From Escherichia coli (GTDB taxonomy: Bacteria > Pseudomonadota > Gammaproteobacteria > Enterobacterales > Enterobacteriaceae): a stretch of 64,000 bases of DNA. Within the stretch, counting starts at the first letter, position 1. Every line of letters starts with the position of its first letter. Where the stretch lies: the NCBI RefSeq assembly GCF_030013595.1, contig NZ_CP122768.1. One strand, written 5' to 3'. Positions 37,172 through 37,248 of this stretch are shown here, one piece after another. Under the pieces are notes generated by a model, which did no database searches, was not told the DNA's origin, and worked only from the letters and a program-made list of their open reading frames with translations. Both the position numbers and the translations under genes were made by a program.

Positions 37172-37248
37172 ATATTCCTTGTAACAACAGGGATAAACCG
37201 AACTAGTTAAAGTTTTTATTATGTTCCCTGCATCAGCGGGGATAACCA
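37172..37248 (+). CRISPR. Degenerate CRISPR remnant (CRISPR2.3-like): two decayed repeats about 20 nt apart
   Basis: ...cagggataaaccg (37172-37200) and gttccctgcatcagcggggataacc (37223-37247) each match the I-E repeat at roughly 18-22 of 29 positions. Confidence 0.5.

Follow-up and report, generated by a model that had tools for sequence, protein, structure and literature searches.

A probable CRISPR2.2 remnant, shortened by 61 nt, in the ygcE-queE locus of an Escherichia coli genome

The CRISPR-II locus of Escherichia coli lies between ygcE and ygcF and holds two arrays, CRISPR2.2 and CRISPR2.3, that are 0.5 kb apart (PMC3903273, PMC3737337). The leader-bearing array beside queE (ygcF) is CRISPR2.3, and the small array beside ygcE is CRISPR2.2 (PMC3903273, PMC3737337, PMC4489801). 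Leaders adjoin only CRISPR2.1 and CRISPR2.3 (PMC3903273, PMC3737337), and CRISPR2.2 is reported to have three repeats and two invariable spacers (PMC4489801). CRISPR2.2 is an already known feature that has been described since 2010; the passages on this array in three later papers (PMC3903273, PMC3737337, PMC4489801) credit its description to Diez-Villasenor et al. 2010. A contiguous form of the locus, CRISPR2.2-3, is carried by B2 E. coli such as LF82 (PMC2941450).

We analyzed this locus in a 64-kb stretch of E. coli DNA, referred to here as the window. The leader-side flank of CRISPR-II is queE (35191 to 35862, + strand), whose product matched NCBIfam TIGR04322 QueE (E = 4.8e-111). It is followed by the true leader, leader2.3 (35863 to 36200, + strand; 338 nt, 31.1% G+C), and by the main array to which this leader belongs, CRISPR2.3 (36201 to 36717, + strand), which has nine 29-nt repeats with the consensus GAGTTCCCCGCGCCAGCGGGGATAAACCG and eight 32-nt spacers. 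The last repeat is a variant, GAGTTCCCCGCGTCAGCGGGGATAAACCA, and the G+C content of the array as a whole is 60.3%, compared to 31.1% in the leader and 26.9% in the AT-rich tract that comes next (36718 to 37171; 454 nt). The two repeat-like units that are the subject of this work lie between the tract and ygcE. A G+C-rich hairpin was predicted just 3' of the ygcE stop codon (37262 to 37287), and ygcE itself (37295 to 38773, - strand) forms the trailer-side flank and is convergent with queE. The ygcE product, an FGGY-family sugar kinase, gave FGGY-kinase family matches under curated cut-offs, and both flanking genes carry the names ygcE and queE in annotated homologous loci. We consider it very likely (a probability of about 0.85) that the two units make up the mini-array known as CRISPR2.2 of the CRISPR-II locus, and that they represent a frozen, nonfunctional remnant, namely, a trailer end that was cut off from one ancestral array.

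The first unit, which we call unit A (37172 to 37200, + strand), has the sequence ATATTCCTTGTAACAACAGGGATAAACCG and matched the main-array consensus at 19/29 positions. The second unit (37221 to 37249, + strand) has the sequence ATGTTCCCTGCATCAGCGGGGATAACCAT and matched the consensus at 21/29 positions. They are separated by 20 nt (37201 to 37220), their starts are 49 nt apart, and the second unit ends 45 nt short of the ygcE stop codon. A sequence-only reading of this DNA had described two weak repeat-like units about 20 nt apart at 37172 to 37248, preceded by an AT-rich stretch about 450 bp past the main array. The units, their spacing, and the AT-rich stretch were all as described, with 454 nt between the end of the last main-array repeat (36717) and the start of unit A; the start coordinate was also correct, but the end was one base short of the true end at 37249. 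A functional type I-E array has 29-nt repeats, 32- to 33-nt spacers, and a 61-nt period, whereas the relic has a 49-nt period and a 20-nt gap.

Outside the arrays, no site on either strand of the 64-kb window scored 20/29 or better, and the 21/29 match of the second unit is beyond chance by score alone. The score of unit A is not beyond chance by itself, as 19/29 was also reached at two unrelated sites in the window (10763 and 25525), and the reality of this unit rests on other evidence. Unit A is regarded as real because the 11 nt of its 3' block are an exact match to the repeat (GGGATAAACCG), because it retains the repeat hairpin, because it lies 20 nt upstream of a true repeat, because the whole unit is conserved in thousands of genomes, and because it is more similar to the second repeat of the canonical CRISPR2.2 (unit B; 23/29) than to the consensus (19/29). 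It is the most decayed of the CRISPR2.2 repeats.

A 631-nt query that spanned the tract and the relic matched 4538 of 5426 complete E. coli genomes, with a coverage of at least 80% in 4126 of them, and all of the matches were chromosomal and adjoined ygcE. The sequence-only reading had proposed a decayed relic of I-E repeats homologous to the corresponding region of other E. coli strains, to be given up as chance similarity if no such homology was found; these genome matches bore the proposal out. In the K-12, BL21, CFSAN018748, and O158:H23 loci, the canonical CRISPR2.2 has the arrangement unit A, 20-nt spacer, unit B, 32-nt spacer, unit C, with ATGTTCCCTGCATCAGCGGGGATAAACCG as unit B, GACTTGTTATCATTTTTTAAGTTGTCGAACTT as the 32-nt spacer, and ATGTTCCCCGCGTCAGCGGGGATAACCAT as unit C. 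This 148-nt structure was present in one piece in 4037/5426 genomes, and in 3566 of the genomes it was at least 99% identical. The invariable short spacer (spacer 1 of CRISPR2.2, 37201 to 37220 on the + strand of the window), AACTAGTTAAAGTTTTTATT, was identical in all E. coli loci that were read. The stem of unit A was invariant among the genomes examined, and only the loop varied (A or C). In line with this pattern, unit A of the window differs from that of K-12 and BL21 by one loop base, and the 20-nt spacer and the ygcE-side flank are identical to those of K-12 and BL21. The two CRISPR2.2 spacers were essentially invariant over the 4037 genomes, which argues against spacer acquisition there.

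The 20-nt spacing had been taken as a sign of a relic array that had lost its periodicity. That the relic is decayed stands, but the spacing is a trait fixed across the species and is no peculiarity of the window because it is part of the canonical arrangement. These data also leave very little room for the idea that the units are a chance similarity in AT-rich intergenic DNA and that there is no real relic. The two unrelated positions that equal the score of unit A are a point in its favor, but no other site in the window scores like the 21/29 unit, both units are conserved within a canonical three-repeat structure in 4037 genomes, deletions between repeats were found at the expected sizes (see below), and the structure has been described in the literature. 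We regard the probability of a chance similarity as negligible.

The window relic shares with the published CRISPR2.2 its position between ygcE and queE on the ygcE side, its distance of roughly 0.5 kb to the array with the leader, CRISPR2.3 (454 nt here), and its type-2 (I-E) repeat family, and homologous loci are annotated with an equal layout. It differs in that the published CRISPR2.2 has three repeats and two spacers, whereas two repeats and the 20-nt spacer are all that remain in the window. From these sequence comparisons, the relic is a derived allele of the CRISPR2.2 locus rather than a different element, and the window form is an uncommon allele. The label "CRISPR2.3-like" that had been given to the relic was swapped: in the published nomenclature, the name CRISPR2.2 belongs to the relic and CRISPR2.3 to the main array. 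The relic may likewise be missed or mislabeled by array finders and CRISPR-typing schemes, because the RefSeq records that we inspected had no annotated feature over the relic match and a 2025 survey gives a single repeat region for the ygcE-queE locus (PMC12736100).

Alignment of the window with the K-12, BL21, CFSAN018748, and O158:H23 loci indicated that 61 nt are missing from the window, corresponding to one repeat and the sole full-length (32-nt) spacer. According to the comparison with canonical loci and the map of marker bases, the second unit of the window is a hybrid of units B and C. It carries the B markers at repeat positions 9 (T) and 12 (A) and the C markers at positions 26, 28, and 29 (3' end CCAT). 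Because the B markers are on the 5' side and the C markers are on the 3' side, the crossover is placed inside 37233 to 37245, a 13-nt block that is common to B and C (TCAGCGGGGATAA). The sequence-only reading had also suggested a history of decay beyond that of the main array, and this 61-nt B/C deletion is a real event of that kind.

To count such deletions, we used a 52-nt junction query with an E-value cut-off that could be passed only by a continuous match. The 61-nt deletion junction was found in one piece in 90/5426 genomes. Seven of the 90 were verified by sequence; all had the 61-nt loss, and they fell into two junction classes. A B/C-hybrid junction was present in FACU 2024 and strain 2313, the two best matches to the window junction, and their flanking haplotypes differ from that of the window and from each other. 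A junction with a pure C unit was present in NCTC86, UMNF18, O145:H28 RM13514, and O157:H7 TR01, and the junction in O157:H7 F8092B had a variant of C (GCGCC). In the pure-C class, the crossover lies inside a 10-nt block (TTATGTTCCC). Other O157:H7 genomes retain the canonical form. The canonical form is also kept in CFSAN018748, which is the closest complete genome (99.4% identity) and has the first and last spacers of the window array. Because CFSAN018748 is canonical and there are two junction classes, the loss is recent in the lineage of the window and recurrent in the species. By the junction sequences, there were at least two independent 61-nt losses among the 5426 genomes, with five or more being probable.

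The likely mechanism of deletion is that short direct repeats slip or recombine with one another. A second case came from "E. coli" E69, in which unit A directly abuts the 32-nt spacer and 49 nt, including the 20-nt spacer, are missing relative to the canonical form. The simplest reading of the E69 sequence would be a 49-nt recombination between units A and B in their common 3' block. Thus, deletions between repeats were found at both of the expected sizes, 61 nt and 49 nt. Spacer loss by recombination between repeats is a process that has been analyzed before (PMC4524480) and that the relic has in common with other arrays. With 90 deleted and 4037 canonical genomes, about 2% of the carriers are without the 32-nt spacer, and the published "two invariable spacers" of CRISPR2.2 therefore have exceptions that arise by recurrent deletion.

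We identified outgroup loci through YgcE. In Escherichia albertii, leader2.3 is followed by a contiguous three-repeat array whose terminal repeat ends in GATAACCAT, and then by TTAGG and the ygcE hairpin. Escherichia whittamii has the leader and one repeat with the same 3' end, and a B2 E. coli strain has a contiguous two-repeat array with the same end on its terminal repeat. In all three, this terminal end is followed by T(C/T)AGG beside ygcE, and leader2.3 is directly upstream of the array. The AT-rich tract was absent from the E. albertii, E. whittamii, Escherichia sp. MOD1-EC7003, and B2 E. coli loci examined, and units A and B were absent from the B2 strain and outgroups examined. The contiguous CRISPR2.2-3 form thus resembles the window in its terminal repeat end and its ygcE-ward flank and differs from it in having neither the tract nor units A and B; in addition, its terminal repeat starts with GAGTT or GGGTT, compared to ATGTT. 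Judging by this shared end and flank, unit C is the ortholog of the repeat that closes the one contiguous array of the outgroups. Unit C is thus the ancestral terminal repeat, and CRISPR2.2 is best read as a detached trailer, not as a second array with a leader. The earlier description of the relic as a second array with its own leader was not supported by this comparison.

Among the outgroup loci read, that of E69, a divergent lineage, was the only one to share the tract; the E69 ygcE has about 92 to 93% nucleotide identity to that of the window. E69 also has an extra decayed B-type repeat (unit D, TCGTTCCCTGTATCAGCAATAAATAACAT; 18/29 to B) that is located 33 nt past the last CRISPR2.3 repeat, so that, together with unit A, repeats of the old type lie on both sides of the tract. 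Neither this extra repeat nor the junction of unit A with the 32-nt spacer was present in the E. coli loci read.

These comparisons point to the history of a split array. There would have been one ancestral I-E array with its leader abutting queE, and CRISPR2.2 would be its leader-distal (trailer) end. In most E. coli, an AT-rich block of about 0.45 kb lies between this trailer and the leader-proximal, still-variable CRISPR2.3. Spacer acquisition in I-E systems happens at the leader-proximal repeat, and a cut-off trailer that lacks a leader would therefore gain no spacers. The only changes left to it would be point mutations and the slippage or recombination of one of its repeats with another. 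In the window, B x C recombination in the 13-nt core would have removed 61 nt and left unit A, the 20-nt spacer, and the B/C hybrid. One caveat concerns polarity: E. albertii, E. whittamii, and the B2 strains could have lost the tract secondarily, because recombination between CRISPR2.3 and CRISPR2.2 repeats would excise it and join the arrays into a contiguous one again. Orphan arrays and degenerate terminal repeats of other loci likewise lack adjacent cas genes and have mutated leader-distal repeats. Unlike the usual degenerate end, the CRISPR2.2 trailer is detached by 454 nt of nonrepeat DNA, and one of its gaps is only 20 nt. The locus cleanly illustrates, in a natural setting, the erosion of an array once it is cut from its leader and cas genes.

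The main competitor of the detached-trailer reading is an independent second array with the tract as its own leader, which could have originated, for example, by tandem duplication of leader plus array or by a separate insertion and could have decayed since. Like leader2.1 and leader2.3, the tract is AT-rich and noncoding (it has no open reading frame of at least 40 amino acids) and is directly upstream of repeats in the same orientation, and at 26.9% G+C it is as AT-rich as the 31.1% leader. There is also a weak local similarity between leader2.3 and the tract. The pairwise local alignment had a score of 29, compared to 22.6 +/- 2.6 for shuffled sequences, and 15/500 shuffles reached the score (p of about 0.03); the strength is comparable to that of a control alignment between two accepted leaders, leader2.1 and leader2.3, in which 5/500 shuffles did so. 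In contrast, an nhmmer profile of leader2.3 detected the K-12 leader2.1 control (E = 0.052) but found nothing in the tract of the window, K-12, or E69 (E of at least 2.3, negative scores).

The IHF site of I-E leaders has a leader-proximal position. In leader2.3 of the window, a near-consensus IHF-type motif (36170) precedes repeat 1 by about 30 nt. In a simple consensus scan of the + strand, no IHF-type site (WATCAANNNNTTR, at least 8/9 matches) was found within 60 nt upstream of unit A or unit B. Promoter-like sites on the + strand are located at 35951 and 36159 in leader2.3, but a simple consensus scan found no sigma-70-like site on the + strand of the tract. In the promoter and terminator scan, counts were not above those of shuffled sequences.

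The tract is 69% identical to its E69 counterpart in the 5' half and 80% identical in the 3' half, compared to 91% for leader2.3, which is 91 to 92% identical to its counterparts in E69 and E. albertii. The better conservation of the part nearest to unit A is a point in favor of a leader, and the derived bases shared by units A and B and the E69 unit D are as expected of a separate lineage of repeats. Against this, the divergence of the tract as a whole far outpaces that of the true leader, the ortholog of unit C, flank included, closes a single array in the outgroups, and the published leaders are those of CRISPR2.1 and CRISPR2.3 only (PMC3903273, PMC3737337). We therefore consider an independent second array unlikely. 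The tract had been described as the relic's own AT-rich, leader-like tract; the likeness is one of base composition only, since the profile, IHF, and promoter scans were negative.

Several other origins for the tract were considered and set aside. As a decayed array, its best matches to either repeat type in the window were 12 to 13/29, which is the level of shuffled sequences, and there was no 61-nt register. As a mobile element, it had no phage match and no match on true plasmids; the "plasmid" matches were megabase-sized E. coli records that look like mislabeled chromosomes, plus one chance match in Borreliella. As ancestral intergenic DNA, it had no homolog beside ygcE in Citrobacter, Enterobacter, Klebsiella, and other genera. 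A small open reading frame of 20 codons on the - strand, which was read by eye, is truncated in E69. The 3' part of the tract (37060 to 37171; for example, AATAGTTCTTATGAATAAAGATATCCAGTTCATACTTTAA) is conserved between E. coli and E69 far above the 5' part. This conservation may reflect a recombination tract in common with ygcE; the 3' half has no conserved open reading frame, and its folding was not notable for a structured RNA (z = -1.6 and -1.2).

The window also lacks a partner for its CRISPR-II arrays. In K-12, the interval between cysH and iap contains cas3 through cas2 and CRISPR2.1. The corresponding interval of the window (53086 to 54977) contains only a hok-like small open reading frame and an IS4-family insertion sequence (53508 to 54877, - strand) with 39-nt terminal inverted repeats. 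The transposase reading frame of the element (53532 to 54812, - strand) matched Pfam DDE_Tnp_1 (E = 2.4e-26) and an NCBIfam IS4-family transposase model above its cut-off. No cas-E genes, no CRISPR2.1, and no I-E repeats beyond those of CRISPR2.3 and the relic were found in the 64-kb window. Because cas-E and CRISPR2.1 are absent from the cysH-iap interval, the CRISPR-II arrays of the window are orphans. With no Cas6e or Cascade from the cysH-iap site and no full-length spacer, the relic would do nothing; we infer that it is inert because the window carries neither cas-E genes nor a full-length CRISPR2.2 spacer. A strain that has both cas-E and the canonical CRISPR2.2 might still process one crRNA from it.

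The hairpins of the relic were examined in this light. Unit A and the hybrid unit are both predicted to form a Cas6e-type repeat hairpin, with the consensus 7-bp stem and a tetraloop (-7.9 and -12.1 kcal/mol, compared to -15.1 kcal/mol for the consensus). The hairpin of unit A is kept because two of its pairs are compensated and one is a G-U pair. If the changes were random transitions, a combinatorial estimate indicated that a compensated stem of this kind would be expected by chance in about 16% of cases, and the stem of unit A is thus no evidence of selection. An Rfam scan of 35800 to 37400 at a permissive threshold gave only sub-threshold chance matches, such as Chlorobi-1 on the repeat hairpin. 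The hairpin at 37262 to 37287 is also conserved beside ygcE in both E. albertii and E. whittamii, and a locus without any CRISPR (L041) has a related one, which is why we assign it to ygcE and not to the relic. It was not called as an intrinsic terminator, as no T-run follows it.

A conserved functional element would be a different explanation for the stability of CRISPR2.2. The element could be a fixed crRNA that is made from the invariable 32-nt spacer and has a nonimmune role, or the hairpins and the AT-rich, possibly H-NS-bound, DNA could form an insulator or terminator that separates the convergent ygcE from the CRISPR promoter. Such a role would fit the canonical 148 nt being at least 99% identical in 3566/5426 genomes and the retention of the hairpin by all repeat units, with two compensated pairs in unit A, and the fold of the relic together with the ygcE hairpin is much stronger than those of shuffled sequences (z = -5.4). 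However, the strong fold is made up of the repeat hairpins and the ygcE hairpin, and the latter exists without CRISPR in L041, just as the compensated stem has its 16% expectation. Counted on the alignment, the divergence of the relic from E69 is about 7%, like that of ygcE DNA (7 to 8%), which indicates no excess constraint. The 32-nt spacer has been lost in 90 genomes; the tract and units A and B are absent from the B2 strain and the outgroups examined. No convincing protospacer of the 32-nt spacer was found in phages or plasmids (best phage E = 0.3), and the window has neither this spacer nor cas genes. We consider a conserved function very unlikely. The biological importance of the relic is low, as the element has been known since 2010 and appears to do nothing.

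What residual curiosity there is may lie in the origin of the tract and in a possible duplication that links unit A to unit B. The 20-nt spacer (37201 to 37220) was compared to the first 19 nt of the 32-nt spacer (positions 2061 to 2092 of locus L002), and they matched at 14/18 positions (p of about 0.08 to 0.09 by shuffling). Given this resemblance and the closeness of unit A to unit B (23/29), an old duplication of unit B and its spacer, since truncated, may have given rise to unit A and its 20 nt. A joint reading would add that about 0.45 kb of foreign or leader-derived DNA was captured between repeats of the old type (unit D in E69, and unit A) of the I-E array, that the duplication of unit B and its spacer was ancient, and that the trailer can be read as a clock of deletions that is independent of Cas. 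This combination is speculative, and we hold it to be doubtful. If it is true, the frozen trailer could serve as a Cas-independent clock of repeat-repeat deletion.

A few further features of the locus were recorded. Part of unit A (37179 to 37200) is complementary at 19/22 positions to 38141 to 38162 in ygcE; we judged this to be chance, and the same stretch of ygcE matches Citrobacter and other genera at E values of about 0.7. The window queE is only 93.8% identical to that of K-12 and leader2.3 is only 90.5% identical, and leader2.3 is as near to E. albertii (92.3%) as to K-12. These values amount to a deep allelic divergence over 35191 to 36200, which suggests either old alleles or recombination at the locus. 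Within the main array, spacers 4 and 5 (36413 to 36444 and 36474 to 36505) are identical (GGCTTTACGCCCAAAAAGGATTGAATGCAGAT), which reads as a tandem duplication of one repeat-spacer unit. The CFSAN018748 array (1317 to 1528 of its locus) consists of one new spacer at the leader end plus spacers 1 and 8 of the window, so that, relative to the window, six internal spacers were lost and one was gained.
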